A stretch of 62,234 nucleotides of DNA. Source: Chloracidobacterium sp. UBA6041 (GTDB taxonomy: Bacteria > Acidobacteriota > Blastocatellia > Pyrinomonadales > Pyrinomonadaceae). Position 1 is the stretch's first letter. Each line of letters starts with the position of its first letter. The position numbers and the translations under genes were made by a program. A model generated the notes under the pieces. The model was not told the origin of the DNA. It was given only the letters and a program-made list of their open reading frames with translations, and did not search any database. Positions 4,062 through 21,013 of this stretch are shown here, piece after piece. The stretch spans positions 1 through 62,234 of the forward strand of contig DIYZ01000279.1 of assembly GCA_002427845.1 (NCBI GenBank), written 5' to 3'.

Positions 4062-4089
4062 CAGCAATCAGCAGTCAGCAATTAGCAAT
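4062..4089. repeat. heptamer array CAGCAAT CAGCAGT CAGCAAT TAGCAAT (x4)
   Basis: Read directly. On the minus strand it gives TAA, TGA, TGA spaced 7 nt apart, so all three frames are stopped. It supplies the last codons and the stop of the kinase fragment (..LLIADC*). Confidence 0.85.
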
Positions 4090-4388
4090 GACTCGCGCAG
4101 GGTCAGGCCATCAATGAACTCGGTAGCAATGAAGTAGGTGGAGTCTGCTTCTCCTACTTCATGGATAGTGATGATGTGCGGATGATTAAGTGCAGATGCT
4201 ACTTTCGCCTCTTGAAGAAAGCGGCGCACCCGCTGCTCGTTCGAGGCGACGTCAGCAGGAAGTATTTTCAGAGCAACTGTGCGGTCAAGCCGGGTATCAA
4301 CAGCCAGATATACTTCGCCCATGCCACCCGCACCAAGTTGCGAGCGGATCTCATAATGGGAAAGGCGTGTGCCTTTGGCGATGGACAT
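4068..4388 (-). pseudogene. Ser/Thr protein kinase N-lobe fragment (truncated)
   Basis: The 106-aa ORF has the Gly loop [13 protein letters not shown] lysine, alpha-C glutamate (FLQEAKV) and hinge ATEFIDG. It stops before any HRD catalytic loop or DFG motif. Confidence 0.7.
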
Positions 4389-4406: not shown

Positions 4407-7400
4407 CTAACCGTGGATGCGCAGGCTGGCATAGTCGACGGCTATGACACCATAAGATAGGGAGAGTCCCTCGACTTCTGGTCGGGCAAAACGGTAAGTC
4501 TGCTCGTGAAAGAGCGGAAGAAGCAGTCTATCGCGCGCGATGATTTCTTCGATCTGCCGATACACCGCATGCCGCGCCGCCGGCGATGTTTCTGATCGTC
4601 CCCGGGCTATCAGACGGTCCACTTCGGTTGAACCACATAGCTGTCCCAACAACCCCTCTTTGGTGGCCAGGATGTTAGCGAAGGTGTCGGCATCCGGATA
4701 GTCAGCCGCCCAGCGCCCCAGCACCACGTCGACGGAGCCCTGGGCCACCGCCTCCAGCCATTCGTCGATGGTCTTATTCATGGGACGAATTGTTACCTGC
4801 TGCTCGCGAAAAGAGCGTGAGATCTCGCGTGAGAAGGCCGCGTATTCTCCAAAGAACACCGGGTTAAGGACCGCGGTCAATTCCATTTCCACGCCTGGTT
4901 GCGGGGGCGCTGACGCGGATGCCGAAGGCATTCGTGGGGCGTATGTAGAATCATGACCAAGCAGTCCAGGCGGAATGAGCCCGTGCGCCGGGACGGCGAG
5001 CCGTCCCAGGGTTTGACGAACCACGCTCGCAACATCGATAGACTGTGCCAGCGTCTGCCGGAGGCGTTTGTCTTTCAGCGGTCCGCGGTGACTGTTGAAT
5101 GCAGCGTAGTAGGTTATGAGCCTGGGCATCTCGTGATAGCCGGACGCAAACTCAGGCTCGCGGCGCAGAACCTCTGCGTCCGCGGGTAACAGATCCGACG
5201 CCAGCGAAAATCGACCGGCACGGAACTGAGAGAGAATGTCCGTCGGCGCAACGCCGAAGTTGAAGGTAAGTCCTTCAATCTTAGGATAGCCACTGCGCCA
5301 GTAGGTTTTATTTCGTTCGAGTTCGAGGCGAACGCCTGGCTCAAACTTCACCACGCGAAAAGGGCCAGTTCCCACGCTGCCCTCCTGCCAGCCCCCCCCG
5401 AACTTGTCACTACCTTCGGGAACAATGGCTGCTGCGTGGTAAGAAATGAGTGCCGGAAAGAACGAGACTGGTTCATCCAGCTCGATCGTAAACTCGTCGG
5501 CAGAGTGAATTCGGAAACCGGCCAGGTCAGACTGCTCTCCGTTAAGGAGCGCCTTGGCACCGCGAATCGGAGAATAGAAGAAGCGGCCGGTGCTGTCAGG
5601 GTTCAGTAGTAGCCTCTCGAACGAATAGCGAACATCGCGCGGTGTCAGTTTGCGTCCATCATGGAAGCGGACATCATCTCGGAGGCGAAAACGATATCTC
5701 TTACCCCCCTGTTCGGCGGTGAAATCAGTCGCCAACCAGGGAACGATCCTCGCGCCGCCGACGTCGCGGGTTAGTGTTTCGAAGATGCTCGGCAGCACCT
5801 CTGCATCTTCCATGGTGCCCGCCAGTGAAGGATCGAGGCGGTGAAGTGTTCCGGTAATCGGGACTTCAATAGTTCCACCGCCCGCCCGTCCGATGTCGGT
5901 CGCTTTGGTCACCGATTCTAATTTGCCTATCTCGGCATAGTTCACATATGGAGCACTACCATGCAGGGTGAGGCCGAGAACTTTTGAGTTGGCCAGGCGA
6001 TAATCGACGTCGTGAAACAGCGGTAACACCATTCCTGATTCCTGCAAAAAACTTTCGTACTTCCTATAAAGTAATGCTCTGACACCGGGACGACTTTCTG
6101 TGCGTGCCTCTTCCAGAATCGGATCCCCTTCGGCCGAGGAGATGTATGCGCGGTATAAACCCACACGCGAATGGAAGAGGCCATAGGTAAAGTCGTCGGG
6201 ATCATCATAATCAGCGTTCCACCTGCCGATGAACAGATCTATGCCGGTACTATTCTGGAAGGATTCCAGGTAGGAGGCCATCGTGGGAGTTGCGACCTCC
6301 ACCTTCACGCCGAGCTCCGACCAGATCGAGAGCAGAGTTGTCAGCAACGACTTATATCGATCCAGGAACAGAGGATGCGCAGCTGCCCTGAGGCTGATTG
6401 GCTCATTGATGCCGGCTGAACCCAGCATGGCAAGGGCCTCGTCGCGAGTGAGTGTTTGGCGTCGCCTGCCAGGATCATACCCCAGCATCGCGGGTGGAAT
6501 CAGGCAGACGGCAGGTTGCGCAAAGCGCCCCAATGTTTGCCAAACGAGATCGTGCGTGCGCACTATCCCCGAGAGCGCCCGACGAAGGTCTGCGTTTCGG
6601 GCGACTGAACCACTCGTAGAATTGAATATGAGAAAGTAAGTATTCTTGCGCGGAGACTCAACCAACCCGCCACGAAAGCGCGGGTCGCGAAGAAACTCTT
6701 CAAGATCCTGGGGCGAGAGATCACGTGCGAGATCAATCGAGCCGGACCGCAACCCTGAAGCTATCTCTGAGGCGCTTAGGCCAGCGCGAAATTCCACCTC
6801 TTCAAGAAACGCTGAAGAACCCTTCCAGTATCTTTCATTGCGCTCAAGCATGATACGGTCAGGGCTGTACGCGGTCATTCGAAACGGACCCGTGCCGATG
6901 GGAATAGAATCGGGCTTTCCATCATCGACGCCTTCATCAACGTTAACAGTGATACCGGTCTTGTAATCTGTTAGCAAGGCGGGATAGATGGAAAGCGGGT
7001 CGGGCAATTGTATTTCCAATTTGTAATCTGAATGGACCAGAATTCCAGCTAGCTCCTTATCATTGCTCTTAGCGAATTCCGCGGCGCCGCGGATCGCCGC
7101 GAGACCTGGAGGTAGCTCGCGAGCCACACGAATGCTCCGCGCGAAGGAATCCTTGATAGCTTGAGCGGTCAGGGCCTGGCCATTCTGGAAGCGGACGTTT
7201 TCTCGCAGAGTAAAGAAGACTGAAGTGCCGTCGTCGGACACTTCCCATTTCTCACAGAGAGCCGGAATCAAATTGCCTTCCAGGTCTGTGGCTAAGAGCG
7301 TCTCAAAAACGTTCGCTAAAATCTCCTGCTCTTCCACGAGTTCCATATTGACCGGATCAATATCACCGAGCGGAGTGGCCAAAGCCACGACCAGTCTGCC

Positions 7401-10082
7401 CCCTTTGGGCATCTCTTCCTGGAGGTCGGTTTCTTTTGGTGCTGGAGCCAGCGAAACAGCCTCTTCGAGGTAGTCATTGGCTTTTTCATACTCTCCACGC
7501 AGGTTGGCGAGCGTGGCAGCCAGAGACAGCACATGCCTGAGGCTATCCTTGTCTCCCGCGGTGCGCGCAGCTTCCATAACCTGCTGGACCAATCTAGTCG
7601 TCTCCTCAACCTTTCTGGATTGCCAGGCAGTCTCTGCTGCGAGCAGGAGTGCGGTCACGGCCCGCGCCTTGTGGCTCTCGCGCTCGAGGATCCGTCCCGC
7701 CGCTTCCGCCTCTTTTAATGCGGCATCCACGTCTCCAGCCATTCGGTGTGCCTGGGCCAGGAGCATTCGCGCGTCTCCCTCCAGCGCCGGGTCACCTACC
7801 CATTCTTCATCGAGAAACTCGAGTACTGTCCTGGCGGCGCGCGCTGCCTCCTCGGGGCTGAAAGCATCGAGCGCAGTCTTGGCCATGCGCAAGCCATACT
7901 CAACTGTTTTGTCTGGAACGTCTCCCTGGGAGAAGTGATGGACCAGCTGCGGGTAGACTCGCTCAAGTCTTCCCCCGTGACGCTTCTCGACCTCCTCAGC
8001 ATATTTACGATGTAACGACCTTCGCTTGCGGCGCGAAATTGCACCGTATAGTACGTCACGAACGACACCACTTGAGAAGGTCAAGCGATCACCACGCGAC
8101 TCCCGCTCTTCCTCGAGGAGTCCCTCATCTACGAGACGGTCAATCGCGTCCTCAACATCCTTTGTGCCGGCCAGCGTTTCCAGGTCGCGAAAGTCAAAAG
8201 CCTTGCCAATGACCGAAGCAATAGAAAGAATCTCACGCAGTTCCTCAGGCAGGCGTTCAATACGTTTTTCAACCGCCTGTTGAATTGTGGCCGGCATATC
8301 ACCGGTTGAGAGTTCAGTGGCCGCACCCAGACTCCAGGCTCCTGTTTGGTCCTTTGAGATGCCGCCGGAATCGAGCAGCGAGCGGACCAGTTCTTTCGTG
8401 AAGAATGGGTTGCCCTCAGTTCCCTCATAGAGTTTCTCCACCAGGCTGTCGGCCAGTTTAGGCCCGCCAATGAGTGTTTCAAGAAACAGGCGATGTTCTG
8501 CTGGTGAGAACGGTCCGAGCGCGATTGCCGAAAAACGGCGGTCTCCGCGGAAACTTTCAAGCATGCGGAGCAGCGGATGGGAGCGGTCTACTTCACTTGA
8601 GCGGTAGGTACCCACGATCAGTGTGGGTGTCGGTCCTAATCGTCGAACGATGTATTGCAATGCCTCGATGGATATCTCTGCCGCATGTAGATCTTCGAGG
8701 AAAAGAATCAGCGGCTTTCCCGCTGCCAGGCGCGTGAGTGTTCGCGCCAGCAGCTCAAAGACCTGGGTCCTGGTTTCGGGTCCCTGTGTTCCGCCAAGCG
8801 ATCCTCCAGTCTGGGCCAACTTTGAATCGCCCATCGCGGCGCCGCGAATCTCACTAATCTCCGTAAGCATGGGAAACAGTGACACGAGATCTGGGGCAAC
8901 ATCTGAAAGCTCTATTAAGTTGTCAGGAGAGCTGGAGGTATCCTTTAGCCGGAAGTATTCCTGAATGGCTTCGCAGAATCCCTGATATGGGAACGCCCCA
9001 TCCTGCTCAATTGATCGCCCATGAAGCACCAGTAGTTTGCGGGCTTTGGCCAGGTTCTCGATCTCGTCCAGGAGTCGTGTCTTGCCTACACCGGGCTCAC
9101 CCGAAACCACGACAAATTGGCATTCACCGCTAATGGCGGCATTGAGTCGCTTCTGCAACTCAGCTTGTTCTTTCTCTCGGCCGATAAACGGAGAGAGCGC
9201 CACCCGCGGTAACATCAGTGTCTTCGTCAATACCACTGATTTGCCAAGATCGCTCTGATGCAGTCGGGTTTGGCAACGCCGTAGAGAATCAGCGATCTCA
9301 CTCGCGCGTTGGGGTCTCTTAGCCGGATCCTTGGCGATACAGGTGAGTATGGCTGCCTCGAGGTCCTCATTGATGTCGGCACCCAATGAGCGCGGCGGCT
9401 GGGGAATCTCATGAACTATGCGATAGAGAATTGACTGGAGCTCACCTGAGAATGGCGGTTCGCCGGTAAGACACTCGTACAGCACAGTGCCGAGAGAGTA
9501 GATGTCCGAACGATGGTCCACACCGCTAGCCGCTACCTGCTCTGGACTCATGTAGGAGAGCGTGCCGGCAATAGTTCCGGTCTTGGTGATGCGACTCTCG
9601 CTAGCCCCTCGGGCAAGACCAAAGTCCATGATCCGAACTCTGACCCGGGCACCATCCTCACGCACCACCATGATGTTCTCCGGTTTAATATCACGATGAA
9701 TTACGCCGCGTGAGTGGCTGTATTCAAGTGCTTCCGCAACCTGAATCCCAATGTCGATAACCTCGCCAAGCGTGAGCCCGCCTTCGCGCTGGAACCAGCG
9801 CAGATTTGTCCCCTGGACGACGGGCATGACAAAGAATAGTGATCCTTCGTGCTTGCCAAAGTCGAAGATTGGCACAACCGCGGGATGATCCATCTGAGCC
9901 ACCAACTGCGCTTCGCGCTGAAAGCGTTGTTCCGTTTCGGGGCTCAGCAGTGTTGGAGGAATAAGCTTGATGGCTACTTCGCGGTTCAATAAGGGATCAT
10001 GTGCTCGATAGACGACGCCCATTCCGCCGCGACCCAACTCCGTCCTGATGTCGTATCGGTTAGAAAGCCTTTGACCGATCAT
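4407..10082 (-). CDS. multidomain Ser/Thr kinase - STAND/AAA_16 NTPase - TPR-like - 2x family-5 solute-binding-protein fusion
   Basis: Single uninterrupted ORF (1898 aa from TTG 10103). The likely start is ATG 10082, preceded by GGAGGGGAG. Motifs are listed in the domain features below. I saw no signal peptide or TM-length hydrophobic stretch. Confidence 0.9.
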   Translation of the reverse strand: MIGQRLSNRYDIRTELGRGGMGVVYRAHDPLLNREVAIKLIPPTLLSPETEQRFQREAQLVAQMDHPAVVPIFDFGKHEGSLFFVMPVVQGTNLRWFQREGGLTLGEVIDIGIQVAEALEYSHSRGVIHRDIKPENIMVVREDGARVRVRIMDFGLARGASESRITKTGTIAGTLSYMSPEQVAASGVDHRSDIYSLGTVLYECLTGEPPFSGELQSILYRIVHEIPQPPRSLGADINEDLEAAILTCIAKDPAKRPQRASEIADSLRRCQTRLHQSDLGKSVVLTKTLMLPRVALSPFIGREKEQAELQKRLNAAISGECQFVVVSGEPGVGKTRLLDEIENLAKARKLLVLHGRSIEQDGAFPYQGFCEAIQEYFRLKDTSSSPDNLIELSDVAPDLVSLFPMLTEISEIRGAAMGDSKLAQTGGSLGGTQGPETRTQVFELLARTLTRLAAGKPLILFLEDLHAAEISIEALQYIVRRLGPTPTLIVGTYRSSEVDRSHPLLRMLESFRGDRRFSAIALGPFSPAEHRLFLETLIGGPKLADSLVEKLYEGTEGNPFFTKELVRSLLDSGGISKDQTGAWSLGAATELSTGDMPATIQQAVEKRIERLPEELREILSIASVIGKAFDFRDLETLAGTKDVEDAIDRLVDEGLLEEERESRGDRLTFSSGVVRDVLYGAISRRKRRSLHRKYAEEVEKRHGGRLERVYPQLVHHFSQGDVPDKTVEYGLRMAKTALDAFSPEEAARAARTVLEFLDEEWVGDPALEGDARMLLAQAHRMAGDVDAALKEAEAAGRILERESHKARAVTALLLAAETAWQSRKVEETTRLVQQVMEAARTAGDKDSLRHVLSLAATLANLRGEYEKANDYLEEAVSLAPAPKETDLQEEMPKGGRLVVALATPLGDIDPVNMELVEEQEILANVFETLLATDLEGNLIPALCEKWEVSDDGTSVFFTLRENVRFQNGQALTAQAIKDSFARSIRVARELPPGLAAIRGAAEFAKSNDKELAGILVHSDYKLEIQLPDPLSIYPALLTDYKTGITVNVDEGVDDGKPDSIPIGTGPFRMTAYSPDRIMLERNERYWKGSSAFLEEVEFRAGLSASEIASGLRSGSIDLARDLSPQDLEEFLRDPRFRGGLVESPRKNTYFLIFNSTSGSVARNADLRRALSGIVRTHDLVWQTLGRFAQPAVCLIPPAMLGYDPGRRRQTLTRDEALAMLGSAGINEPISLRAAAHPLFLDRYKSLLTTLLSIWSELGVKVEVATPTMASYLESFQNSTGIDLFIGRWNADYDDPDDFTYGLFHSRVGLYRAYISSAEGDPILEEARTESRPGVRALLYRKYESFLQESGMVLPLFHDVDYRLANSKVLGLTLHGSAPYVNYAEIGKLESVTKATDIGRAGGGTIEVPITGTLHRLDPSLAGTMEDAEVLPSIFETLTRDVGGARIVPWLATDFTAEQGGKRYRFRLRDDVRFHDGRKLTPRDVRYSFERLLLNPDSTGRFFYSPIRGAKALLNGEQSDLAGFRIHSADEFTIELDEPVSFFPALISYHAAAIVPEGSDKFGGGWQEGSVGTGPFRVVKFEPGVRLELERNKTYWRSGYPKIEGLTFNFGVAPTDILSQFRAGRFSLASDLLPADAEVLRREPEFASGYHEMPRLITYYAAFNSHRGPLKDKRLRQTLAQSIDVASVVRQTLGRLAVPAHGLIPPGLLGHDSTYAPRMPSASASAPPQPGVEMELTAVLNPVFFGEYAAFSREISRSFREQQVTIRPMNKTIDEWLEAVAQGSVDVVLGRWAADYPDADTFANILATKEGLLGQLCGSTEVDRLIARGRSETSPAARHAVYRQIEEIIARDRLLLPLFHEQTYRFARPEVEGLSLSYGVIAVDYASLRIHG
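4410..5882 (-). other. domain: solute-binding protein family 5 module 2 (aa ~1408-1898)
   Basis: PSIFETLTRD..IVPWLATDFTAEQGGKRYRFRLRDDVRFHDGRKLTPRDVRYSFERLL, GTGPFRVV, LERNKTYW, RWAADYPDADTF. Confidence 0.7.
5949..7403 (-). other. domain: solute-binding protein family 5 module 1 (aa ~901-1385)
   Basis: ILANVFETLLATDLEGNLIPALCEKWEVSDDGTSVFFTLRENVRFQNGQALTAQAI, GTGPFRM, LERNERYW, RWNADYDDPDDF. This pattern is typical of DppA/OppA-like proteins. Confidence 0.7.
7449..8486 (-). other. domain: helical / TPR-like region (aa ~540-885)
   Basis: Ala/Leu/Glu-rich repetitive helical sequence, e.g. ARMLLAQAHRMAGDVDAALKEAEAAGRIL and LANLRGEYEKANDYLEEAVSL. Confidence 0.55.
8604..9191 (-). other. domain: P-loop NTPase, AAA_16/STAND-like (aa ~305-500)
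   Basis: FIGREKE..., Walker A GEPGVGKT, Walker B-like LILFLEDLH. The kinase plus AAA plus helical-repeat layout resembles PknK/MalT-type proteins. Confidence 0.75.
9279..10055 (-). other. domain: Hanks-type protein kinase (aa ~17-275)
   Basis: GRGGMGVVY, VAIKLI, HRDIKPEN, MDFGLA, SYMSPEQ. Confidence 0.9.
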
Positions 10083-10528
10083 CTCCCCTCCATGAAAAAA
10101 CAAGTCGAAAAGCTGTTAGAGTAAATCGTGAGTGTTTTGTGAGCGTGAGGAAAAGGAGCGCTCGTTAAGGCGCTCTTTACCAGTGAACCAAGCGGACACG
10201 GAAGTTGTAATAATAGGCCACGCCTTTACGGAATGTATAGTGGCGCGGATGAAACGGTACGGCGCAGTGCACTTGTTTGGTGATCGACTTACCAAAGCGC
10301 TTGCTGACGCGCGGGGCTTTTGCCCCAGCGGTATTAGTTTTTATTCCGAGCAGCGAATCCCACGCGTCCACTGACCTAATTCGGCCGCCCGGTCTCTCGC
10401 GGACACAAGTTGAAGATCCGCTCCGCCTGGGGCACACTCTCTTGTTCAAAGCGCTCATGTTTTTATTCCCGACGTACCTAATCGGAGAATAGCCGCGGTT
10501 AGTTGCGACCTAAAAGGAGGGTGGTCGT

Positions 10529-13088: not shown

Positions 13089-13955
13089 CTACCGCTCGCG
13101 ATTCTGTAGGTCCCGTACACGCGTCGCCAGGCGCGCATCACCAATTTTCCCTTCGACCTTCCCTTCGATCTTCTTTGCCACTGACGGAAATGACGCGGTC
13201 GCTCCGTTCCAGCGAAGTTGTTCGACATCGTCGAAGAGCGGCGCGTCGATTCGCAGCGTCGCGAGGTGCTTGAAGAGCAGCGCGCGTTCGAGATTATTCC
13301 GCTCGGGGTCATTCCTGAGAACATCGTCGGGAAACTGTTCGATGTGGCCGTAGCGGTTGATAAGTGTCGCGGCTGTTTTAGGCCCTAAACCCGGGATGCC
13401 AGGATACCCATCAGCGGCGTCACCCACGAGCGCGAGGTAGTCCGGGATGAACGTGGGCGCGACACCGAACTTCGCGCGAATGGCTTGCTCATCACGAATC
13501 TGACCGCTTCTCCGATCCACTTGAACTACGCGCTCTCCGACGACGCATTGCGCGAGATCCTTGTCCGGCGTCCAGATGCACACCTTCTGCACGCGCTCGT
13601 CCTGGGCCGCAATGTGTGCCGCGGACGCGAGCGCATCGTCAGCCTCGAACTCGATCATGGGCCACACGGCAACGGCCATCGCGGCGAGCGCCTCCTCGAG
13701 CGGGTGGAACTGCGCAAGCAGGGCCGGCTCGATGCCCGCGCCGGTTTTGTACTCCGGCCAAAGATCATTGCGGAACGACTCGATTACGTGATCAGTTGCG
13801 ACACCAATGTGCGTCGCCCCATCTTCGAGCATCTTCGCAACCGTATTAAGCACGCCGGCCACGGCGCCGAAAGGTGGATCGGTTTTCTTGAAACGCCGGA
13901 TGCCGTAGAAGTGACGAAAGAGTTCGTATGTGCCGTCAATGAGGTGAACGATCAT
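13089..13955 (-). CDS. 5'-3' exonuclease / flap endonuclease family protein
   Basis: MIVHLIDGTYELFRHFYG, FEADDALAS, H3TH motif GIPGLGPKTAATLINRYG. The ORF extends to 13982, but those extra codons lie in a heptamer array. Confidence 0.85.
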   Translation of the reverse strand: MIVHLIDGTYELFRHFYGIRRFKKTDPPFGAVAGVLNTVAKMLEDGATHIGVATDHVIESFRNDLWPEYKTGAGIEPALLAQFHPLEEALAAMAVAVWPMIEFEADDALASAAHIAAQDERVQKVCIWTPDKDLAQCVVGERVVQVDRRSGQIRDEQAIRAKFGVAPTFIPDYLALVGDAADGYPGIPGLGPKTAATLINRYGHIEQFPDDVLRNDPERNNLERALLFKHLATLRIDAPLFDDVEQLRWNGATASFPSVAKKIEGKVEGKIGDARLATRVRDLQNRER

Positions 13956-13968
13956 GCGCAGGGAGCGG

Positions 13969-13996
13969 TCAGCAGTCAGCAATCAGCAATCAGTGG
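13969..13996. repeat. heptamer array TCAGCAG TCAGCAA TCAGCAA TCAGTGG (x4)
   Basis: Read directly. The minus strand has four TGA spaced 7 nt apart, starting 1 nt after the VOC gene stop. Confidence 0.85.
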
Positions 13997-13997
13997 A

Positions 13998-14384
13998 TTA
14001 CTTCTGGTCAAGCACGGACAGGATATTACCGGCGGGATCCTTGAACCAGGCAATGTTTGGGCCCTCGCCACTGGCTGTACCGCGAAAGATACCTTTTCCA
14101 TCTGTTTTAATGTCGCCTTCGTAATGCTCAAAGCGTACGCCGAGTTTGGTGAGCTGGTCTACCGCTCGTTCAATATCGTCCACTGGAAAGTTTAGGATCG
14201 TGAACGTGGCTGGTTCATGGTTAGGCTTCGGATATATGAACACCTGACCGCCACCGGCGATCCGCAGCCGTAAGCCTTCTTCTGTTTCGGAAACTTCCAG
14301 CCCAAGTGTTTGCCCGTAGAATTCTTTCGCTTTTTGAATGTCGTCTACTGAAAAACTGCTAAATGCGCGGGTGTCTTTGAACAT
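13998..14384 (-). CDS. VOC (glyoxalase/bleomycin-resistance) family protein
   Basis: 128-aa ORF containing [21 protein letters not shown] ... [12 protein letters not shown]. Confidence 0.8.
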
Positions 14385-14408
14385 AGCGTTACCTCCCTGC
14401 CTTTATAG

Positions 14409-14445
14409 TAAATCGTGGATCGCAAATCGAGTAAATCGTAAATAG
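14409..14445. repeat. heptamer array TAAATCG-like (x5)
   Basis: taaatcg tggatcg caaatcg (ag) taaatcg taaatag. agtaaatcgtg also occurs at about 10119-10130. Confidence 0.65.
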
Positions 14446-14479
14446 TCGCCTTCGGCGTGATTATCTGATCGGCCGGCGT

Positions 14480-15127
14480 TTAATCGGGGTGCACCGTTGG
14501 TGCATCCGCGTGAGGCACAAAGCAACGGCGGCAGCGGGCTTCGTACATACCGCCGGCGCCTACTGCCACGCGTTCTTCAGATTCAAAGGTACGTTGCGAG
14601 TAGTTGGCAGGCTGGCCACACTTCATGCAGATAGCGTGAGTTTTCGTGATGTATTCGGCAACGGCGAGTAGTTGTGGCATTGGTTCCCAGGGCTTGCCGG
14701 TGTAGTCCTGGTCCAAACCGGCGATAATTACACGAACCCCGCGGCGCGCTAATTGAGTGGCCACATCCACTAACGCATTATCGAAAAATTGGCCTTCGTC
14801 GATCCCGACCACTTCCGTGTCAGGGTCAACCTTCGCCAGCACTTCCGAAGCGCTGCGAATGTTTGCCGACTCATGCCGCATCTCTGAATGCGAGACGATG
14901 TGATCGTGCGAAAAGCGCGAATCGATCTCTGGCTTGAATACCTGCACCTTCTGACGCGCAATCTTCGCGCGCCGCAGCCGGCGAATCAGTTCTTCTGATT
15001 TTCCGGAAAACATCGAACCGGCAATCACTTCGATCCAACCTGTGGTTAAGCGTGAATGGTGAGTCGGCTCGCCATCATTAGCCTGTGCAATAAGTTCGTC
15101 CATGTTCGTCCTAACTATTCTTGCCAC
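14480..15127 (-). CDS. tdk: thymidine kinase
   Basis: P-loop [11 protein letters not shown] and a C-terminal zinc-binding pair CMKCG..CRRCF. Start is either GTG 15127 or ATG 15103. Confidence 0.9.
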
Positions 15128-15249
15128 AGAAGCACCGAGTCACGTAGCAACAAAAGTAGCAATATTTTATTGCAATGAATAGACGACCTTTGATGAAACC
15201 CGGCTGGTTTTACTCGCGGACTCCTTTGTGCCTCTGCGCCTCAATTTCT

Positions 15250-15843
15250 TTAAGAGTACATCTCCTTATTATAAAACGGAGCGAAGGCCGCGATCAGCGC
15301 TATCTCGAAGCTCATCGAGCGCGTAACCAGATCGCGAGACAGAATGCCCCAGGCGCCCTGTCGACTGCGCACGTCTTGCATCCCCGCCACTTCATCAATC
15401 ACGAGACCAAGTTCACGACGCCCTTCTATAACTTTTTTCGCAAGTGATGCGGGAACGCAAATCGAAGGTGTGGCTCCAAATGTTCCGTTCTTTCCATCTG
15501 TGGCGTAAGCCCAGCCGCGCAAAAACGTATACCATTCGCCTTCAATCGAAATGGAATGAAAGCCGCCTTCCAATCCCACGTAAATTTCCGCCTCTCGCCG
15601 CTGGGCCCGAAGTTGATCGCGCACCGCCAGGGCCCGTTCGCGCGCGCCCTGCATCAACTGCCAATCATTCAACGGCATCGCCGGCACGTCTGTCTCCACG
15701 GCGCGCGCAAGCACGCTAGCCTCGGCCCATGACGCGTCTATTTCCGCGATGCGCGCGATCGCCGCGCGGACAGCCATAATCTTTGCGGCACGATCCGATC
15801 CTAGCGCGACGGTTTTAACTGTAGTCGGAGCTTGCTGGGACAA
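15250..15843 (-). CDS. yjjX: inosine/xanthosine triphosphatase-like NTPase (DUF84/YjjX family)
   Basis: The 197-aa ORF aligns by eye with YjjX: VGLEGG.., QGAWGILSRDLVTRSMSFEIALIAAFAPFYNKEMY. Confidence 0.75.
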   Translation of the reverse strand: MSQQAPTTVKTVALGSDRAAKIMAVRAAIARIAEIDASWAEASVLARAVETDVPAMPLNDWQLMQGARERALAVRDQLRAQRREAEIYVGLEGGFHSISIEGEWYTFLRGWAYATDGKNGTFGATPSICVPASLAKKVIEGRRELGLVIDEVAGMQDVRSRQGAWGILSRDLVTRSMSFEIALIAAFAPFYNKEMYS

Positions 15844-15943
15844 AGTAGACAGATTAGAACCGAAAACCCGAGTCAGGTGAAACGCATCAGAGGCTATAAC
15901 AGAGCGGCGCTCGGCGTCAAAAGTGTCAGGCGAAACGCGTCGC

Positions 15944-15973
15944 TTGACATTACCTGTAGCTCGTTGCTGTAAT
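15944..15973 (+). promoter_or_regulatory. candidate sigma70-type promoter (TTGACA-N18-TGTAAT)
   Basis: ttgaca at 15944-15949 and tgtaat at 15968-15973, upstream of the 68-nt element and the leuA-like gene. Confidence 0.35.
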
Positions 15974-15986
15974 CAAATTTCTTCCC

Positions 15987-16054
15987 AGTTCAGAGTACCA
16001 GCTTCAGCTTGATGAGTCTGAAAAACGGCAAACTAAAGTTTGAACTCTAAACTT
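15987..16054. repeat. 68-nt structured repeat element, copy A
   Basis: agttcagagtaccagcttcagcttg + 14-nt variable centre + cggcaaactaaagtttgaactctaaactt. It is collinear with copy B at 56739-56806, and the arms are partly self-complementary. Confidence 0.75.
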
Positions 16055-16086
16055 AAGAAGCGTCCGATCGCTGGAGGTTTTCGCGA

Positions 16087-17301
16087 GTGTCTCTCGATGA
16101 ATTAGTTTACGATTGGAACACAATTGACCCCGCAATGGTTCCTCCCAATCGTCACATAGGGTTTGACGACGAGACCTTGCGTGATGGTTTGCAGTCGCCG
16201 TCTGTTAGCGAGCCTCCGATTGAACAAAAAATTGAGCTGCTTCACTTGATGGATGCCTTGGGCATCGACACCGCCGACATCGGTTTGCCGGGAGCCGGCG
16301 GCACGCACGCAGCCGGAGTGGAGCTGATGGCGCGTGAAATAGCGGAAAAGAAGTTGAAGATTCGACCCAACTGTGCGGCACGGACGCACCGCAACGACAT
16401 CCTGCCGATTATTGAAATATCTCAACGCGTTGGTATCCCAATCGAAGCATGCACTTTTATTGGTTCCTCTGCGATACGTTTTTTTGCCGAGGACTGGACG
16501 CTGGACAAGCTCCTCAAGTTGACCGAGGAAGCTGTGACGTTTGCGGTGAGCGAAGGCGTGCCCGTCATGTACGTCACTGAAGACACGACGCGAGCCAACC
16601 CGGAGACTATTCGCGCGCTCTATACGACAGCCATTCAATGCGGAGCAAAAGCCGTTTGCGTCTGCGACACAGTAGGGCATTCAACACCTGATGGGGCGCG
16701 CTCGGTTGTTCGTTTCGTAAAAAACATTATCGAGGAGCAGGGGGGCAACATCCGTCTGGATTGGCATGGCCACCAGGATCGAGGTCTCGGGGTCATAAAT
16801 TCGATAGCCGCAATTCAGGGCGGCGCGGATCAGGTCCATGGTTCAGCGCTGGGAATGGGCGAGCGGGTCGGGAATACACCAATGGATCAGTTGCTCGTTA
16901 ATTTAAAGCTGATGGGATGGATTCAGAACGACCTATCGCGACTTGGTGAGTATTGCGCGCTGGCATCGAAAGCCTGTGGTTGGACCATCCCGGTAAACTA
17001 TCCGGTGTTTGGTCGCGATGCTTTTCGCACGGCCACTGGCGTGCATGCGGCGGCGATAATCAAGAGCTACAAGAAAGGCGATCGCGAACTTGCCGACATG
17101 GTTTATTCGGGCGTGCCGGCCGGCCTTTTTGGCCTCGAACAGCTTGTTGAAATCGGACCAATGAGTGGTAAGTCAAATGTTATCTACTGGCTCGAGAAGC
17201 GAGGCATTGAACCGAGCGAAGATCGCGTCACTAGAATTTACGATCGAGCTAAACAGGCAACTGCCGTTTTGCCAGACGACGAAATCATGCGGCTGGTTTG
17301 A
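16087..17301 (+). CDS. 2-isopropylmalate/homocitrate synthase family protein (HMGL-like catalytic domain only)
   Basis: 404-aa ORF with GTG start 9 nt after GGAGG. Contains DETLRDGLQSP and HGHQDRGLGVINS, with no long C-terminal LeuA regulatory domain. Confidence 0.75.
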   Translation: MSLDELVYDWNTIDPAMVPPNRHIGFDDETLRDGLQSPSVSEPPIEQKIELLHLMDALGIDTADIGLPGAGGTHAAGVELMAREIAEKKLKIRPNCAARTHRNDILPIIEISQRVGIPIEACTFIGSSAIRFFAEDWTLDKLLKLTEEAVTFAVSEGVPVMYVTEDTTRANPETIRALYTTAIQCGAKAVCVCDTVGHSTPDGARSVVRFVKNIIEEQGGNIRLDWHGHQDRGLGVINSIAAIQGGADQVHGSALGMGERVGNTPMDQLLVNLKLMGWIQNDLSRLGEYCALASKACGWTIPVNYPVFGRDAFRTATGVHAAAIIKSYKKGDRELADMVYSGVPAGLFGLEQLVEIGPMSGKSNVIYWLEKRGIEPSEDRVTRIYDRAKQATAVLPDDEIMRLV

Positions 17302-17369
17302 ACAGCGGGCATCATGAAATTAAGCGCTGGATTCGATACTTCCTCCACTTCCAGGCAACCAACTTCCGT

Positions 17370-18599
17370 ATGTCTCTGATGCAAACATTTTCACCCGCTG
17401 CGAGCACTGACGAGTTGATCGACTCTCCAAAGTTACAGAGCGTCTTTAGGCTTATCGATTCGCATTTGGGTGAGATTACGGAAGAGCAGATTCGAATTTG
17501 CTCGATTCCGGCACCACCGTTTGGAGAAAAGCAGCGCGCGGAATATCTCGGCAAGAGATTTAGCGAGGTTGGACTGCAATCCTGGCAACTCGATCAGGAA
17601 GGAAACTGTGTTGCGCTGCGACGGGGCAATTCGCCTGGGCCGCTTTTAGTTGTTAGCGCGCATCTGGATACAGTTTTTCCGCCCGAAACGGATCTTACTG
17701 TTCATCACGCGGGCAACAAACTTCTGGCGCCGGGTATCTCAGACGATTGCTGCGGCCTTGTTGGATTGCTGGCCATCGCTGAAGCTCTCGAGTCCTGCCG
17801 AATTGAAACCGAGGGTTCGCTTTTGTTTGTAGGAACGGTTGGTGAAGAAGGCGAGGGGAATCTTCGCGGAGTCAGATACTTACTAACCCGCGGTGAATGG
17901 GCCAACTGTGTTGACGCATTCTTGAGCTTTGACGGGCCGGGTATTGAACGAATCATAAATAGCGCTCTCGGTTCGCGCCGCTATCGTGTGCAACTGCGTG
18001 GAACCGGAGGACACTCGTGGGCTGACTTTGGCGTTGCTAACCCCGTTCATGCAGTGGCCCGCGCGGTCGCCAAACTTGCTTCGTACCCAGCACCACTGGA
18101 ACCGCGGACAACTTTTAACGTGGGCCGTATTGAAGGCGGCAGCAGCATTAACGCTATTCCACGTGACGCTACGGTGGATGTGGATCTTCGCTCCGCAAGC
18201 AGCGAAGAACTGCTCAAACTTGATGCCTTCTTTCGTCGCGCGATGCGGGAGGCAACCGAGGAGGAAAACGCCGGAGTACGCAACGGTGACCGCCCCTTGG
18301 AACTCAACGCTAGTTTGATTGGTGAACGTCCAAACGGTGAAACCCCTGCTAATTCGCCGCTGGTTAAGCTGGCGTGCGAAGCAACAGAAGCACTGGGCTC
18401 AAAGCCACGACTCGCTCAAGCGTCTACTGATTCGAACTTACCGATCTCTCTCGGCATTCCCGCAATTACCCTCGGCGCGGGAGGCACAGCAGGCAATTCA
18501 CATACTCTTGACGAGTGGTACGATCCACGCGGTCGTGAAGCCGGACTGAAGCGTGCCCTACTCGTCATCCTCGGAATAGTCGGGTTAAAAAACAGGTGA
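17370..18599 (+). CDS. M20/M25/M40 family metallopeptidase
   Basis: VVSAHLDTVF, VGEEGEGNLRG, GGHSW. The ORF is open from TTG 17298, which would overlap the leuA-like stop. ATG 17370 (MSLMQTF..) is preferred, but the start is uncertain. Confidence 0.75.
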   Translation: MSLMQTFSPAASTDELIDSPKLQSVFRLIDSHLGEITEEQIRICSIPAPPFGEKQRAEYLGKRFSEVGLQSWQLDQEGNCVALRRGNSPGPLLVVSAHLDTVFPPETDLTVHHAGNKLLAPGISDDCCGLVGLLAIAEALESCRIETEGSLLFVGTVGEEGEGNLRGVRYLLTRGEWANCVDAFLSFDGPGIERIINSALGSRRYRVQLRGTGGHSWADFGVANPVHAVARAVAKLASYPAPLEPRTTFNVGRIEGGSSINAIPRDATVDVDLRSASSEELLKLDAFFRRAMREATEEENAGVRNGDRPLELNASLIGERPNGETPANSPLVKLACEATEALGSKPRLAQASTDSNLPISLGIPAITLGAGGTAGNSHTLDEWYDPRGREAGLKRALLVILGIVGLKNR

Positions 18600-18601
18600 A
18601 C

Positions 18602-18669
18602 AGAAAGGGTAAGGGGTAAAGAGTAAGCGACCAGAATCTGGCTCTTACTCTTTACCCCCTACCCTTTCT
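18602..18669. repeat. inverted pair of GGGTAAG-type heptamer arrays forming a ~27-bp hairpin between convergent genes
   Basis: agaaagggtaaggggtaaagagtaagc / 12-nt loop / gctcttactctttaccccctaccctttct. Stop triplets are spaced 7 nt apart on both strands. This may be a bidirectional terminator, though T-runs are not adjacent. Confidence 0.8.
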
Positions 18670-18679
18670 ATGGTCCCTT

Positions 18680-19648
18680 TTAATTTATGGGAATCGTAAG
18701 CGTTGTGGAGCCGCCTTTCCCAGCCGGAAATCGCTTCTGACGTGCAATGCGCAGCGCGGTTGCGTCGGCGCCCGATGCCTGCGTAACGCGGCCCGATTCG
18801 TCATAAGTGACTGTTACCGCAACCTTCTTGGGTCCCGGCTTTGCTGATTCAGCCACACCGTTTGCCGGTGCCGGCGCAGGTGATTTTGTTCCAGGCTGAG
18901 TTAGCGCAGCCGCTTTCTCTTCTCGAGCCTTGGCTTTTTCTTTGTCGTGCTGTCGTTTCGCAGCAAGCGCCGCCTCCGAGTTGTGATCGCTCAAGGCTGA
19001 ATTTTCCGAAGGCTGTGCCACTTCGTTCTGCGGAGCCTCAGCTACAGTTGGTTCGGTACTCGTCGATTCAATCCTCGCCGGCTGACTAACAACTGCGCTT
19101 GCCTTCGCGCGACCGTACCAACCCGCAGGGACACCGATCGCTGCAACGCTGGCAATCACTGCCACGACGACGGCTCCCGCAATTATTAATCTTCGCTTCG
19201 CCATTGATTCAGAATTAATAAAGGAAAGGAAAGCCGGCACGCGCAGCTTCTCGATGTCGGTAAACGAATCCGCAGGCGAACCTGCTTCGGGCGCACTACT
19301 TTCATTCGGGTAGTTTGGCGGAAACGCGGATGGCGGGACAACCCCTTCATCGAGCCGGCGCAAGCCTTCTAATACTACCTGCGTCCAGGGTTGATTGATT
19401 GTGCGCTCGACGGATTCTGTAGAAGCGCCAAACTCAAACTTCGCGTTCGGAAGCGTAAGCGCATAGTAGACAGCGTCAATCCCCCGCAGCACGCCAATAC
19501 GGGCGTCAACTACCGAGCCGGTTTGCAGATAAAAGTAGCCATGCCCCTCGGGGTAAAGCACTTTTAGCTGTCCGGTCTTGCGTTGGTTGCAGAAGAACTC
19601 AATCAGTTCGGATAGCGAAAGGTCGCTCAGATGTCCGGTTAGTCCCAT
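18680..19648 (-). CDS. DUF4388 (PATAN-like) domain protein with TM segment
   Basis: LTGHLSDLSLSELIEFFCNQRKTGQLKV..GYFYLQTGSVVDA, TM RRLIIAGAVVVAVIASVAAIGV, SD AGGAG. Confidence 0.75.
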   Translation of the reverse strand: MGLTGHLSDLSLSELIEFFCNQRKTGQLKVLYPEGHGYFYLQTGSVVDARIGVLRGIDAVYYALTLPNAKFEFGASTESVERTINQPWTQVVLEGLRRLDEGVVPPSAFPPNYPNESSAPEAGSPADSFTDIEKLRVPAFLSFINSESMAKRRLIIAGAVVVAVIASVAAIGVPAGWYGRAKASAVVSQPARIESTSTEPTVAEAPQNEVAQPSENSALSDHNSEAALAAKRQHDKEKAKAREEKAAALTQPGTKSPAPAPANGVAESAKPGPKKVAVTVTYDESGRVTQASGADATALRIARQKRFPAGKGGSTTLTIPIN

Positions 19649-19694
19649 CAGAATTAGCTCCTGTTATGGAGAGAGTGTTTGCCGGGGAGAGGGA

Positions 19695-19720
19695 GAGACG
19701 CCAATAAGTTTTGGCGTCTC
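19695..19720. other. 10-bp stem hairpin gagacgccaa-taagtt-ttggcgtctc
   Basis: Perfect inverted repeat just 3' of the TonB-C gene stop, with no U-tract. Confidence 0.5.
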
Positions 19721-19723
19721 ACG

Positions 19724-20836
19724 TTACTGGGCGATGGAGAATTTGTAGTTGATCACGCCCGATACTTTTACAGGCTGGCCGGAAAGCTTGGTGGGTGAAA
19801 ACCGCGCCCGCAGAGCTGCCTGCATTGCAACTTCTCGCAATGCGACTGGTCCACCCGTAGCCAGAGCAGAGATTACTTTTCCTGTTTCATCCACGACGAC
19901 GTCAACCGAAACCAGGCCGGAAACCCTTAAGCGTCTGGCCGATTCGGGATAAGTCGGTGATGGTAAACTGATCGCGGTGCCATTGAGCACGCCGCCAGAG
20001 ACAGGTTTGAGAATCGGCCTCGGAGCAGGCGGCGGTGGGTCTGAATCCAGTTGGACCATCGGGCTCTCGGCGCTCGCGTTTGATTGCGAATTTTTGACTT
20101 CGACTGAACCCATGCTGGTCAGTTTATCCGAGGCCATCATAGCCGGTAATGAAGGCGAGGAGTTTTTGGCAGCGGTGTTCTTGCGGGCTGCCGGCTTATT
20201 AGGTACGACCGGGCTCTTCGCCGCTTCGTTCGAATTGGCGACGCTGTTGGCTGGCACTGTTGACGGTGAAGCTGGCTGTGTCATCTTCATCATGTTCTCG
20301 TCGAGGTAATACATTATCGCCCGGTAGGTTACTTCAGTTGGCTCGAACGACATTTTACCTGCTTCGATCACTGCTACGGACGTTGTCATCTTGTTCCAGT
20401 TGCCCGCGAAATCAGATTCGTATTTGTAAACTTCTTTACTCAACAAAGATCCATCACTGTTGAGCAGCGTCATCTCACTGATGTTTCCTTTGTCGTCATA
20501 CTTGTAAACCTCTTTGCCGGTCAAATTTGCTCCGGCTATGGGGAAGTACTGGTTCTCGGTCTTGTTACCCTTAATGTCGTATGCCACCACTTCAAGAACG
20601 GCATGCTTGCTTTCCAGGAGCTGGCCATTGTCATTTGATAGTTTTGCTATTTCAGTCCTTACTCTGCGCACCGGCCCAACTAATCCATCCCTTAGGCGAT
20701 CACTTTCCACTACAGTGGCGGCAGGCGGCTGAAGAACATTAGCTTTCGCCGTAAGGTTAGACTGTGCCAGCGTTGTCGCGCTGAAAGCCGACAGTGCGAG
20801 AGCACTCAAGGTGAAACGACCGATCTGTCTTAACAT
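19724..20836 (-). CDS. TonB C-terminal domain-containing secreted protein
   Basis: Signal peptide, then C-terminal PTYPESARRLRVSGLVSVDVVVDETGKV...VKVSGVINYKF, which is typical of TonB_C. Confidence 0.75.
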   Translation of the reverse strand: MLRQIGRFTLSALALSAFSATTLAQSNLTAKANVLQPPAATVVESDRLRDGLVGPVRRVRTEIAKLSNDNGQLLESKHAVLEVVAYDIKGNKTENQYFPIAGANLTGKEVYKYDDKGNISEMTLLNSDGSLLSKEVYKYESDFAGNWNKMTTSVAVIEAGKMSFEPTEVTYRAIMYYLDENMMKMTQPASPSTVPANSVANSNEAAKSPVVPNKPAARKNTAAKNSSPSLPAMMASDKLTSMGSVEVKNSQSNASAESPMVQLDSDPPPPAPRPILKPVSGGVLNGTAISLPSPTYPESARRLRVSGLVSVDVVVDETGKVISALATGGPVALREVAMQAALRARFSPTKLSGQPVKVSGVINYKFSIAQ

Positions 20837-21013
20837 ATGATTTAGCTCCTGACTCGAAGAGGTGGGACCGTTCTCAAACTCGCTAGTGAGGCGCTGCTAC
20901 CGACGAAATTGGACTCGCGCCGGTGCGGCAATCCGAATAATAGCGAGTTTAACGACGTTTGTCTAGCGTCAACGTTGGCAAGCTGGGCGAAATTACGAGG
21001 ATTTCTTGGTTTT

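Follow-up and report, generated by a model that had tools for sequence, protein, structure and literature searches.

The 62,234-nucleotide stretch of Acidobacteriota DNA analysed here (the window) encodes a 1891-residue soil-Acidobacteria protein that was confirmed to be real and strongly conserved. According to the Pfam and NCBIfam matches, a Hanks kinase is followed in this protein by an AAA_16/STAND NTPase, an arm with TPR-like helices, and two full-length SBP_bac_5 (SBP5) modules. We think it reasonably probable that it is a soluble cytoplasmic kinase built on the STAND plan and equipped with SBP5 flytrap sensors; the architecture, its conservation, the lack of export signals and transporter partners, the complete fold of module 2 and the effector swapping in relatives are results of the analysis, while the binding of a ligand, its nature, a switch by oligomerisation and the kinase targets are what we infer. 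The protein is an uncharacterised, apparently undescribed variant of a known signalling design.

Gene and domain organization

The ORF listing of the window contained a single uninterrupted ORF at 4407..10103 of the reverse strand, with 1898 aa if counted from its TTG codon. The true start is most likely the ATG at position 10082 rather than the TTG at 10103, because GGAGGGGAG directly precedes this ATG and all the orthologues begin with MIGQ; the predicted protein thus has 1891 aa. The features of the gene and its product are listed in Table 1.

Table 1. Features of the kinase-STAND-SBP5 gene, in window positions.
Feature	Position	Strand	Basis or remark
Kinase-STAND-TPR-SBP5-SBP5 CDS, complete, 1891 aa plus stop	4407..10082	(-)	Likely start ATG 10082..10080
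Shine-Dalgarno-like GGAGGGGAG	10083..10091	(-)	Read in the sequence, immediately upstream of ATG 10082
Hanks-type Ser/Thr protein kinase (aa 10-260)	9303..10055	(-)	Pfam PF00069
AAA_16 P-loop NTPase, nucleotide-binding part of the STAND NOD (aa 298-490)	8613..9191	(-)	PF13191
Walker A GEPGVGKT	9078..9101	(-)	Within the AAA_16 domain
Helical/winged-helix 'arm' of the STAND core (aa 491-700)	7983..8612	(-)	TIGR03903 alignment; boundaries estimated
TPR-like helical repeats (aa 701-885)	7428..7982	(-)	Weak Pfam TPR_12 and TPR_15 matches
SBP_bac_5 module 1 (aa 898-1385), predicted full-length cluster-C solute-binding fold	5928..7391	(-)	Pfam, alignments
Inter-module linker, about 20 aa, poorly conserved	5868..5927	(-)	Mean identity 51%
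SBP_bac_5 module 2 (aa 1406-1891)	4410..5867	(-)	Pfam, alignments, AF2 model

Over aa 10-260, the kinase domain matched PF00069 with an E-value of 3e-51; the score was 174.7 bits and the model's cut-off is 31.7. In the translation, the catalytic set was complete (GRGGMGVVY, VAIK, REAQ with the alphaC Glu, HRDIKPEN, DFG, and SPE), and these motifs were at least 80% conserved in 61 family members. As a Hanks Ser/Thr kinase, the effector looks active. With the exception of REAQ, these motifs had been quoted in a preliminary description of this DNA made from the sequence, as had GEPGVGKT, LILFLEDLH, VRFHDGRKLTPRDVRYSFERLL, GTGPFR, and RW.ADY; all of them were found in the translation, and the claim of one uninterrupted ORF was also borne out by the ORF listing.

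The AAA_16/STAND NTPase that the same description had proposed was supported by a PF13191 match above the cut-off (E 8e-21, 75.7 bits vs. 32.6) and by the conservation of both Walker motifs. Within Walker A (GxxGxGK[ST]), the three glycines were invariant and the lysine was present in 59 of the 61 family members; for Walker B (hhhhE[DN]), which reads LILFLEDLH here, the glutamate was found in 55/61. The arm region contained conserved motifs that include EGNPFF and RRKRRSLH, and aa 297-888 aligned to the AAA-TPR part of the NCBIfam model TIGR03903. The TPR_12 match at aa 810-880 reached 20.3 bits, under the curated Pfam cut-off of 30.1. A family profile matched TPR proteins (best E 9e-10), and its match to domain III of MalT (1hz4) was marginal (E 1.3e-3); when the STAND region was compared with the PDB sequences by phmmer, no real solved homologue was detected. 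The Pfam and NCBIfam matches are arranged in the STAND modular order of effector, NOD, arm and sensor.

The two SBP5 modules

The presence of two SBP5 modules, also claimed in the preliminary description, was confirmed by very strong PF00496 matches in both (E 3e-117, 392 bits, split over two stretches). The modules were 32% identical to one another; module 2 corresponds to the one common to the single-SBP relatives, and module 1 is without a counterpart in them. Among the orthologues, the mean identity was about 71% in the SBP5 modules vs. 51% in the inter-module linker. Residues 12-475 of module 2 aligned to residues 10-490 of 8upi, a protein of 523 aa, and module 1 aligned to residues 30-516 of 6ofq. 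In these alignments, each module matches solved SBP5 proteins almost from end to end; fold completeness was judged from sequence alone for module 1, and from sequence and an AF2 model for module 2.

The structure prediction that had been suggested as a check yielded, for module 2, a complete cluster-C SBP5 at high confidence (pLDDT 90.7). The best Foldseek matches of this model were the open form of MppA (TM 0.86), apo DppE, and YliB, with TM 0.85-0.86 over the three, and the identity to solved SBP5 structures in the structural alignments was about 16-22%. The modelled module 2 is a canonical open flytrap, nearest to the open unliganded MppA, DppE, and YliB. The AF2 model obtained for the two-module region (aa 886-1891) from an input that included seven close orthologues had a pLDDT of 46.8 and could not be used.

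In OppA, D419 is the aspartate that anchors the alpha-amino group of the peptide. In the alignment with solved SBP5 sequences, the D of RW.ADY aligned with this residue, and an acidic residue (D or E) occupied the equivalent position in 39 of 46 sequences of module 1 and in 49 of 55 of module 2, although the motif recurs in the aligned solved SBP5s and its conservation is thus weak evidence on the ligand class. The NCBIfam scores for the curated SBP equivalogs (OppA, DppA, NikA, GsiB, and others) were far under their cut-offs, e.g., 214 vs. 947 for OppA.

Predicted cellular location and gene neighbourhood

The highest Kyte-Doolittle 19-residue mean in the protein was 1.29, and the usual threshold for a transmembrane segment is 1.6. 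Judged by hydropathy and domain position, no TM-grade hydrophobic segment, signal peptide or lipobox context was found, which agrees with what had been reported previously for this ORF; moreover, the kinase domain begins at residue 10, leaving no room for a signal peptide. The SBP5 modules (aa 898-1891) sit behind cytoplasmic domains, and the linkers between the TPR-like region and module 1 (about 12 aa) and between the two modules (about 20 aa) are polar. Hydropathy maxima above 1.6 were observed in some relatives, and these were rejected as TM segments, as they fall inside the Walker B strand or the SBP5 core and not in the linkers. Other relatives carry DNA-binding heads on the same NTPase-TPR-SBP5 cassette, an arrangement that requires a cytoplasmic location. 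On these grounds, the SBP5 folds of the predicted protein must lie inside the cell.

The neighbours of the gene in the window were a VWA-type protein, an FAD oxidoreductase-like gene and small ORFs without known function, and neither here nor at the related loci were genes for an ABC permease or ATPase found nearby. Clustering of the neighbourhoods of 83 loci revealed no conserved neighbour or partner, and the neighbours differed between genomes. The largest neighbour cluster over these loci resembled Arg-rich antisense ORFs. A PP2C/SpoIIE phosphatase recurred near the gene in only 6 of the 83 loci.

Conservation and distribution of the family

More than 120 protein clusters, 72-94% identical to the protein and derived from NCBI, JGI, ENA, and Logan assemblies, had the same layout, one of them on a 6.1-Mb contig. 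When the wider family was clustered at 50% identity, at least 79 clusters were obtained; at least 50 of them had two SBP5 modules and at least 29 had one. A search of species-representative genomes from a five-sequence alignment returned 554 relatives; the best 80 of these 554 were titled as Acidobacteriota lineages (Pyrinomonadaceae/Blastocatellia, Vicinamibacteria, and Thermoanaerobaculia), except for two MAGs titled Clostridia. The complete layout was encoded as one uninterrupted ORF at 56 of these best 80 loci, all in independent Acidobacteriota assemblies. Some genomes contained two copies of the gene.

The dN/dS values were 0.04-0.17 over all the domains (SBP5 modules, 0.11-0.17; rest of the protein, 0.04-0.11), and codon-level purifying selection extended across all the domain junctions; the SBP5 modules do not diversify fast among the orthologues. 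The NOD-TPR-SBP5 cassette was also found in relatives bearing OmpR-type wHTH, XRE-HTH or SIR2 plus kinase heads. Such an exchange of heads is what one would expect of STAND proteins, whose effectors are interchangeable. In a more distant relative, SBP5 was found behind an adenylate cyclase-AAA_16 protein.

Proposed mechanism and alternative explanations

In the mechanism that we propose, the protein would follow the STAND plan from an N-terminal effector kinase through the NOD NTPase and the arm to a C-terminal sensor, this being the TPR-like region lengthened by two complete SBP5 Venus-flytrap modules of the DppA/OppA/MppA type. At rest, the sensor and the arm would keep the NOD closed on ADP. 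Capture of a small cytoplasmic ligand by the SBP5 cleft or clefts would close the hinge and lift the autoinhibition; the ligand is probably peptide-like or otherwise amine-bearing, such as a peptide that was taken up, released by proteolysis or derived from cell-wall recycling. The NOD would then swap ADP for ATP and multimerise, and the multimer would gather the kinase domains for trans-autophosphorylation and for phosphorylation of putative targets. The preliminary description had already placed the SBP folds as intracellular sensors of a STAND switch; this role is still one that we infer, now with independent support from the DNA-binding heads on the cassette of the relatives and the lack of transporter genes nearby. 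More tentatively, and with slightly less than even confidence, we suggest that SBP5 was domesticated at least twice as a hitherto overlooked class of intracellular STAND sensor, giving a phylum-wide, paralogue-rich set of Acidobacteriota STAND kinases with one or two flytraps that would read peptide-type metabolites of the cytoplasm. These kinases may convert metabolites such as cell-wall recycling peptides or imported oligopeptides into Ser/Thr phosphorylation, and the two non-identical modules might constitute a two-ligand or cooperative detector.

A rather unlikely alternative is that the SBP5 modules are protein- or peptide-docking scaffolds instead of small-molecule sensors, which would recruit kinase substrates, hold unfolded proteins by their termini or let the protein associate with itself; the true STAND sensor would then be the TPR region, as in MalT. 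Large or unusual partners do occur within this fold, since PDB titles describe SapA solved with dsRNA and PrgZ as binding a peptide pheromone, and an accessory role would fit both the tandem modules and the relatives with only one. Moreover, members of this STAND clade usually sense through TPR/SUPR (PMC4381067, PMC6468293), and the TPR-like region has been kept upstream of the SBP5 modules. Both modules, however, appear to retain full-length folds under purifying selection, and the open flytrap modelled for module 2 and the mostly conserved acidic residue equivalent to OppA D419 are also features at odds with a mere scaffold. The cyclase mentioned above is a second, distantly related AAA_16 protein that recruited SBP5, suggesting a generic sensor role.

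It is improbable that the protein is an anti-phage or conflict STAND of the Avs-like kind, in which the SBP5 modules would detect a peptide or protein of the invader and defence would be carried out by the kinase. One relative has a SIR2_2 domain, a type common in defence effectors, and some genomes have the gene twice; however, a well-conserved orthologue is present across the Pyrinomonadaceae with the low dN/dS values given above, and the sensor modules are not fast-diversifying. The kinase domain scored strongly against PADLOC kinase models (e.g., PD-T4-6, mad6, and PglW), but the matches were limited to the generic kinase domain, aa 1-320, and were rejected as defence evidence. Likewise, the NCBI name of some orthologues is 'BREX system ATP-binding domain-containing protein', but the BrxC_BrxD Pfam match was a 56-residue P-loop stretch at the cut-off; the neighbours in the window and at the related loci were of the housekeeping type, with no defence island or conserved partner seen. 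The habitual export of SBP5 proteins, together with the PGAP and JGI annotation as a transporter substrate-binding protein, could suggest that a TM segment was overlooked, or that export or cleavage is unconventional, so that the SBP5 half lies outside the cytoplasm and signals to the kinase as a classical receptor. This arrangement is very hard to credit in view of the hydropathy profile, the absence of signal peptide or lipobox context, the polar inter-domain linkers, the DNA-binding heads of the relatives and the lack of permease and ATPase genes nearby. The artefact considered in the preliminary description, fusion of separate kinase-STAND and SBP genes by misassembly or frameshift, is effectively refuted by the identical architecture in the more than 120 clusters from four sources, the 56 unbroken ORFs and the purifying selection in every domain and across all the junctions.

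Comparison with known systems

In the cytoplasm, PBP folds as a whole are long familiar as effector domains. SBP5 had been described as a fold that normally acts outside the cytoplasm, and this statement has to be corrected, as SgrR and DsvR, which are HTH plus SBP_bac_5 transcription factors, provide a precedent for SBP_bac_5 as a cytoplasmic ligand-sensing domain (PMC13060122). Unlike the present protein, SgrR and DsvR are one-component regulators with a single SBP5 and without an NTPase switch or kinase. The SgrR model NF010149 gave 44 bits with module 2, far under its cut-off of 476, and the N-terminus found here was a kinase and not an HTH. The periplasmic SBPs of ABC importers (DppA, OppA, MppA, GsiB (YliB), and NikA) share the PF00496 fold and family with full-length alignments, whereas the present modules lack a signal peptide or lipobox, have no permease or ATPase genes next to them, and are fused in tandem to a cytoplasmic signalling protein.

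How STAND proteins function, and that PknK is a kinase of this type, has been described before (PMC4381067, PMC6468293). PknK (M. tuberculosis Rv3080c) and other kinase-AAA_16-TPR STAND kinases, among them the TIGR03903 TOMM kinase/cyclase class, share with our protein the succession of an N-terminal Hanks kinase, a MalT-clade NOD/AAA_16 and, probably, helical repeats, and are soluble and cytoplasmic, as is predicted for our protein. With respect to PknK, about 1000 extra residues were found after the TPR region, corresponding to the two predicted complete SBP5 folds, and the PknK and MalT layouts in PMC4381067 include no SBP5 module. MalT from E. coli, the reference bacterial STAND, undergoes inducer- plus ATP-dependent multimerisation (PMC4381067, PMC6468293) and shares the logic of NOD, arm and superhelical sensor. 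Its effector, however, is a C-terminal LuxR DNA-binding domain, in place of the N-terminal kinase observed here, and maltotriose is bound by the SUPR repeat, which acts as its sensor, whereas the present protein appends a globular flytrap fold to the repeats. In the GlnH-GlnX-PknG system of Actinobacteria (PMC8546545, PMC8050422), an SBP reports nutrients to a soluble, TPR-bearing Ser/Thr kinase; there, GlnH is a separate extracytoplasmic SBP of another family that signals via the membrane protein GlnX, while the SBP folds of our protein are covalently fused and predicted to be intracellular, with a STAND NTPase between them and the kinase.

Significance and database names

STAND proteins, e.g., MalT, PknK, AfsR, NLRs, and Avs, occupy a central place in signalling, and we know of no ligand for most of the bacterial members. 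A STAND family with a well-understood flytrap sensor would offer a tractable route to the inducer, SBP5 ligand screens being routine. Soil Acidobacteriota are abundant, have many Ser/Thr kinases and are difficult to grow in the laboratory, and this family could reveal how they sense their internal nutrient or cell-wall state. STAND sensors have so far been described as repeat domains, i.e., LRR, TPR, WD40, and ankyrin (PMC4381067).

Whether the architecture was already catalogued had been left undecided in the preliminary description; the sequences are abundant in the databases under automatic names, and our literature search, which combined SBP_bac_5 with kinase, AAA_16 or PF00069, retrieved no paper describing it. 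In the 12 of 16 passages covered, a review of SBP signalling (PMC8050422) brings up SBP_bac_5 solely in connection with stand-alone extracytosolic SBPs. In the sequence databases, the orthologues are automatically named 'ABC transporter substrate-binding protein'. This name and the BREX one cited above are a misfit for the architecture, and hundreds of proteins carry them; these pipeline names would inflate the counts of transporter and defence genes in metagenome surveys.

Gene and Domain Layout

The gene was found as a single minus-strand ORF without interruption in the ORF listing of the window, and the first codon of this mechanical ORF is TTG. Since GGAGGGGAG lies immediately 5' of an ATG at 10082, and MIGQ is the N-terminus in all the orthologues, the start was placed at this ATG, giving a protein of 1891 aa. 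The preliminary description had proposed a kinase-STAND NTPase-TPR-double SBP5 fusion; every motif quoted there was found in the translation, and the PF00496 matches anticipated for the C-terminal half were recovered by Pfam as SBP_bac_5 in two stretches. In the NCBIfam scan, aa 297-888 aligned with the AAA-TPR portion of the TOMM kinase/cyclase model, and the C-terminal half matched OppA, NikA, DppA, GsiB and, weakly, SgrR, all far under the equivalog cut-offs; neither Pfam nor NCBIfam returned a curated family covering the entire protein. The features checked in the sequence were those of a Hanks kinase and an AAA_16/STAND NTPase, and the kinase and Walker motifs are kept across the family, so both enzymatic parts look functional. 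Modules 1 and 2 each aligned to solved SBP5 proteins over essentially their full length; they are 32% identical (241 bits), a closer match than either has with a solved SBP5 (148 bits at most).

Positions of the gene, its domains and the adjacent kinase N-lobe ORF
Feature	Position	Strand	Basis or remark
Kinase-STAND NTPase-arm-TPR-SBP5-SBP5 gene (mechanical ORF)	4407..10103	-	ORF listing
Pkinase	aa 10-260		Pfam, E 3e-51
AAA_16, nucleotide-binding STAND core (NOD)	aa 298-490		Pfam, E 8e-21
Arm	~ aa 491-700		
TPR-like region	~ aa 701-885		
TPR_12 + TPR_15	~ aa 790-888		Pfam, sub-threshold
SBP_bac_5, module 1	aa 898-1385		Pfam, two stretches, E 3e-117
SBP_bac_5, module 2	aa 1406-1891		Pfam, two stretches, E 3e-117
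106-aa kinase N-lobe ORF	4068..4388	-	19 nt downstream of the large gene

Conservation

More than 120 clusters with 72-94% identity, about 100% coverage and the same Pfam content emerged from an orthologue search among 5.8 billion proteins; they were drawn from NCBI, JGI, ENA and Logan assemblies, one of them on a 6.1-Mb contig. When species-representative genomes were scanned with the module 2 alignment, 554 relatives were detected; the best 80 carried Acidobacteriota titles, two MAGs excepted, with 69-94% identity in the Pyrinomonadaceae/Blastocatellia loci and 53-60% in those of Vicinamibacteria and Thermoanaerobaculia. Loci L032 and L035, MAG records titled 'uncultured Clostridia bacterium', hold orthologues that share 69% identity with the window protein; since this is otherwise a Blastocatellia-level similarity, these MAGs are likely mis-binned or mislabelled. 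ORFs were re-derived for each locus and annotated with the protein's own domains: the full kinase-NTPase-arm-TPR-SBP-SBP layout was present as one uncut, unbroken ORF in 56 loci and with a duplicated kinase in two more; contig ends truncate most of the others. When codons were compared with those of three close loci, dN/dS was 0.11-0.17 in modules 1 and 2 and 0.04-0.11 across the four regions before them (kinase, NTPase, arm, TPR). Mean identity among orthologues (n = 15) was 84% for the kinase, 71% for each SBP5 module and only 51% for the inter-module linker. These substitution patterns indicate that selection maintains all the domains.

Cellular Location and Ligand Site

The earlier statement that the protein has no signal peptide or TM segment agreed with hydropathy and domain logic: the Kyte-Doolittle 19-residue mean peaks at 1.29, the kinase starts at residue 10 and leaves no room for a signal peptide, and the linkers between domains are polar. 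In more distant relatives, peaks of 1.6-1.9 fall in the Walker-B strand or the SBP5 core, not in linkers. Separately from the hydropathy argument, relatives with DNA-binding heads on the same cassette support cytoplasmic SBP5 folds, because such heads work only in the cytoplasm.

The AF2 model of both modules, built on a shallow alignment, had a pLDDT of 46.8; a model of module 2 only, made with 18 diverse sequences from the family, reached a pLDDT of 90.7 and a pTM of 0.88. Upon Foldseek comparison with the PDB, the latter fell squarely among cluster-C SBPs, and its best global superpositions were with open or unliganded forms of MppA (4toz, TM 0.86), DppE (8azb, 0.85) and YliB (1uqw, 0.85). 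The Asp in RW.ADY aligned with D419 of E. coli OppA, which forms a salt bridge to the peptide alpha-amino group; an acidic residue (D or E) occupies the site in 39 of 46 sequences of module 1 and in 49 of 55 of module 2. Such a residue would fit a ligand that is peptide-like or carries an amine, though this is weak evidence, as RW.ADY is also seen in the solved SBP5 proteins of the alignment.

Wider Family and Effector Swapping

Residues 290-1400 were searched exhaustively and profile-free against 1.84 billion 50%-identity representatives, and the top 150 matches were annotated. Among these, the double-SBP layout comprised at least 50 clusters (about 1850-1950 aa, identity down to 31%), and a single-SBP5 form 29 clusters (about 1350-1400 aa). 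In the joint alignment, the one SBP5 of most single-SBP5 proteins lined up with module 2, which is therefore the shared module; this and the identity between the modules suggest that module 1 is most likely the product of an internal duplication. The NTPase-arm-TPR-SBP5 cassette, with one or two SBP5 copies, was also found under other heads (P0135, P0202, P0220, P0225, P0164, P0152): an OmpR-type winged helix (Trans_reg_C) replaced the kinase in four representatives, two XRE-type HTH (HTH_3) domains headed the cassette in one, and a SIR2_2 domain stood ahead of the kinase in one. Effectors swapped on a constant NOD-sensor cassette are a STAND hallmark (PMC4381067). The winged-helix-headed form was seemingly rare in a separate search (3 clusters). 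Class III adenylate cyclase-AAA_16-SBP_bac_5 proteins of about 1200 aa were also detected (P0390, P0429), and with just 24% identity (87 bits) between their SBP5 and module 2, AAA_16 STAND proteins seem to have recruited SBP5 a second, independent time.

In a subfamily of about 2120-2170 aa (P0279-P0311, loci L063 and L081), two kinase domains in tandem precede NTPase-TPR-SBP5-SBP5; P0280 shows two Pkinase stretches, the first also overlapped by APH and ABC1 matches. Several Acidobacteriota genomes contain two full-length gene copies (L039 and L045, both on contig CAVOPG010000002.1; L043 and L083, assembly DATFEN01; L073 and L074, assembly JBBQNC01); paralogues of the family thus coexist within genomes.

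Genomic Context

The 106-aa ORF encodes the N-lobe of a Hanks kinase only and then stops, with about 30 nt between its end and the next gene. It is 39% identical to the kinase of the large gene and 50-67% identical to kinase-like sequences in related loci, e.g., L011 and L001, and is apparently what is left of an adjacent kinase gene that was deleted or truncated; within the 62-kb window, it is the only second copy of any of the protein's domains. A FAD-oxidoreductase-like gene and then a VWA-type protein follow downstream, and divergent small ORFs lie upstream of the large gene. Two orthologous loci had wholly different neighbours, and clustering of all ORFs from 83 loci gave no recurrent partner gene; moreover, no ABC permease or ATPase gene was associated with the gene or its orthologues in the window, the orthologous loci or this clustering. 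A PP2C/SpoIIE phosphatase, a few kb away in only 6 of the 83 loci (L002/L003, 15871-16860; L020; L022; L032; L043), could be the cognate phosphatase of the STAND kinase, the association being weak. At L001 (6.1-Mb contig), three adjoining genes, each encoding Pkinase fused to a Tricorn_N/PD40 beta-propeller in about 880-910 aa (13650-21646), lie directly downstream of the orthologue and a 268-aa kinase gene upstream, forming a local Ser/Thr kinase cluster.

Proposed Mechanism and Known Systems

The best-supported reading of the protein is a MalT/PknK-type STAND switch (PMC4381067, PMC6468293), which would work like these proteins with an added sensor type. At rest, it would be a monomer whose NOD, closed on ADP, is kept inactive by the arm and sensor; binding of ligand in one or both SBP5 flytraps would lift this autoinhibition, nucleotide exchange and multimerisation would follow, and the N-terminal kinase domains, once gathered, would be activated. 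The earlier view of the SBP folds as intracellular sensors of a STAND switch with kinase output was supported as the leading hypothesis, under which one or two SBP5 folds were domesticated as an extension of the sensor region of a STAND signalling ATPase. That these modules are instead docking scaffolds, with the TPR region as the true sensor, seems rather unlikely. A defence-type STAND is improbable, as generic kinase matches in PADLOC and one SIR2-bearing relative are all that favour it, whereas vertical conservation, low dN/dS and the housekeeping context argue against it. Still harder to sustain is a periplasmic SBP5 half, given the hydropathy profile and the DNA-binding heads, and an assembly artefact can practically be dismissed, with the same content in more than 120 clusters, an unbroken ORF in 56 loci and dN/dS of 0.04-0.17.

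PBP folds shuffled into cytoplasmic regulators are already familiar, LacI- and LysR-family regulators having PBP-type effector domains. A cytoplasmic SBP_bac_5 has precedent in SgrR and in DsvR, its homologue from Vibrio, both regulators of HTH-SBP_bac_5 type (PMC13060122), and SBP-to-Ser/Thr-kinase signalling occurs in trans across the membrane in GlnH-GlnX-PknG (PMC8546545, PMC8050422). Our literature search, of incomplete coverage, found no paper naming SBP_bac_5 with AAA_16 or PF00069, and broader searches, similarly incomplete, no description of the kinase-STAND-TPR-SBP5 architecture. It would be unexpected for a STAND protein to have a globular flytrap as its sensor, and for this type, recruited on more than one occasion, to dominate the STAND-kinase repertoire of a phylum; the inducer could then be approached directly by experiment. 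The protein shares the SBP5 fold with transporter SBPs but lacks three of their defining features, an export signal, transporter gene context and an equivalog score; whatever its name in databases, it should therefore not be classed among ABC transporter components. In Acidobacteriota, the STAND-SBP5 family is both widespread and paralogous, and databases misname it. None of the four names in use reflects the full architecture: one orthologous protein (P0002, P0029, P0106, P0119 and others) appears variously as 'ABC transporter substrate-binding protein', 'BREX system ATP-binding domain-containing protein', 'DUF2791 family P-loop domain-containing protein' and 'protein kinase'.
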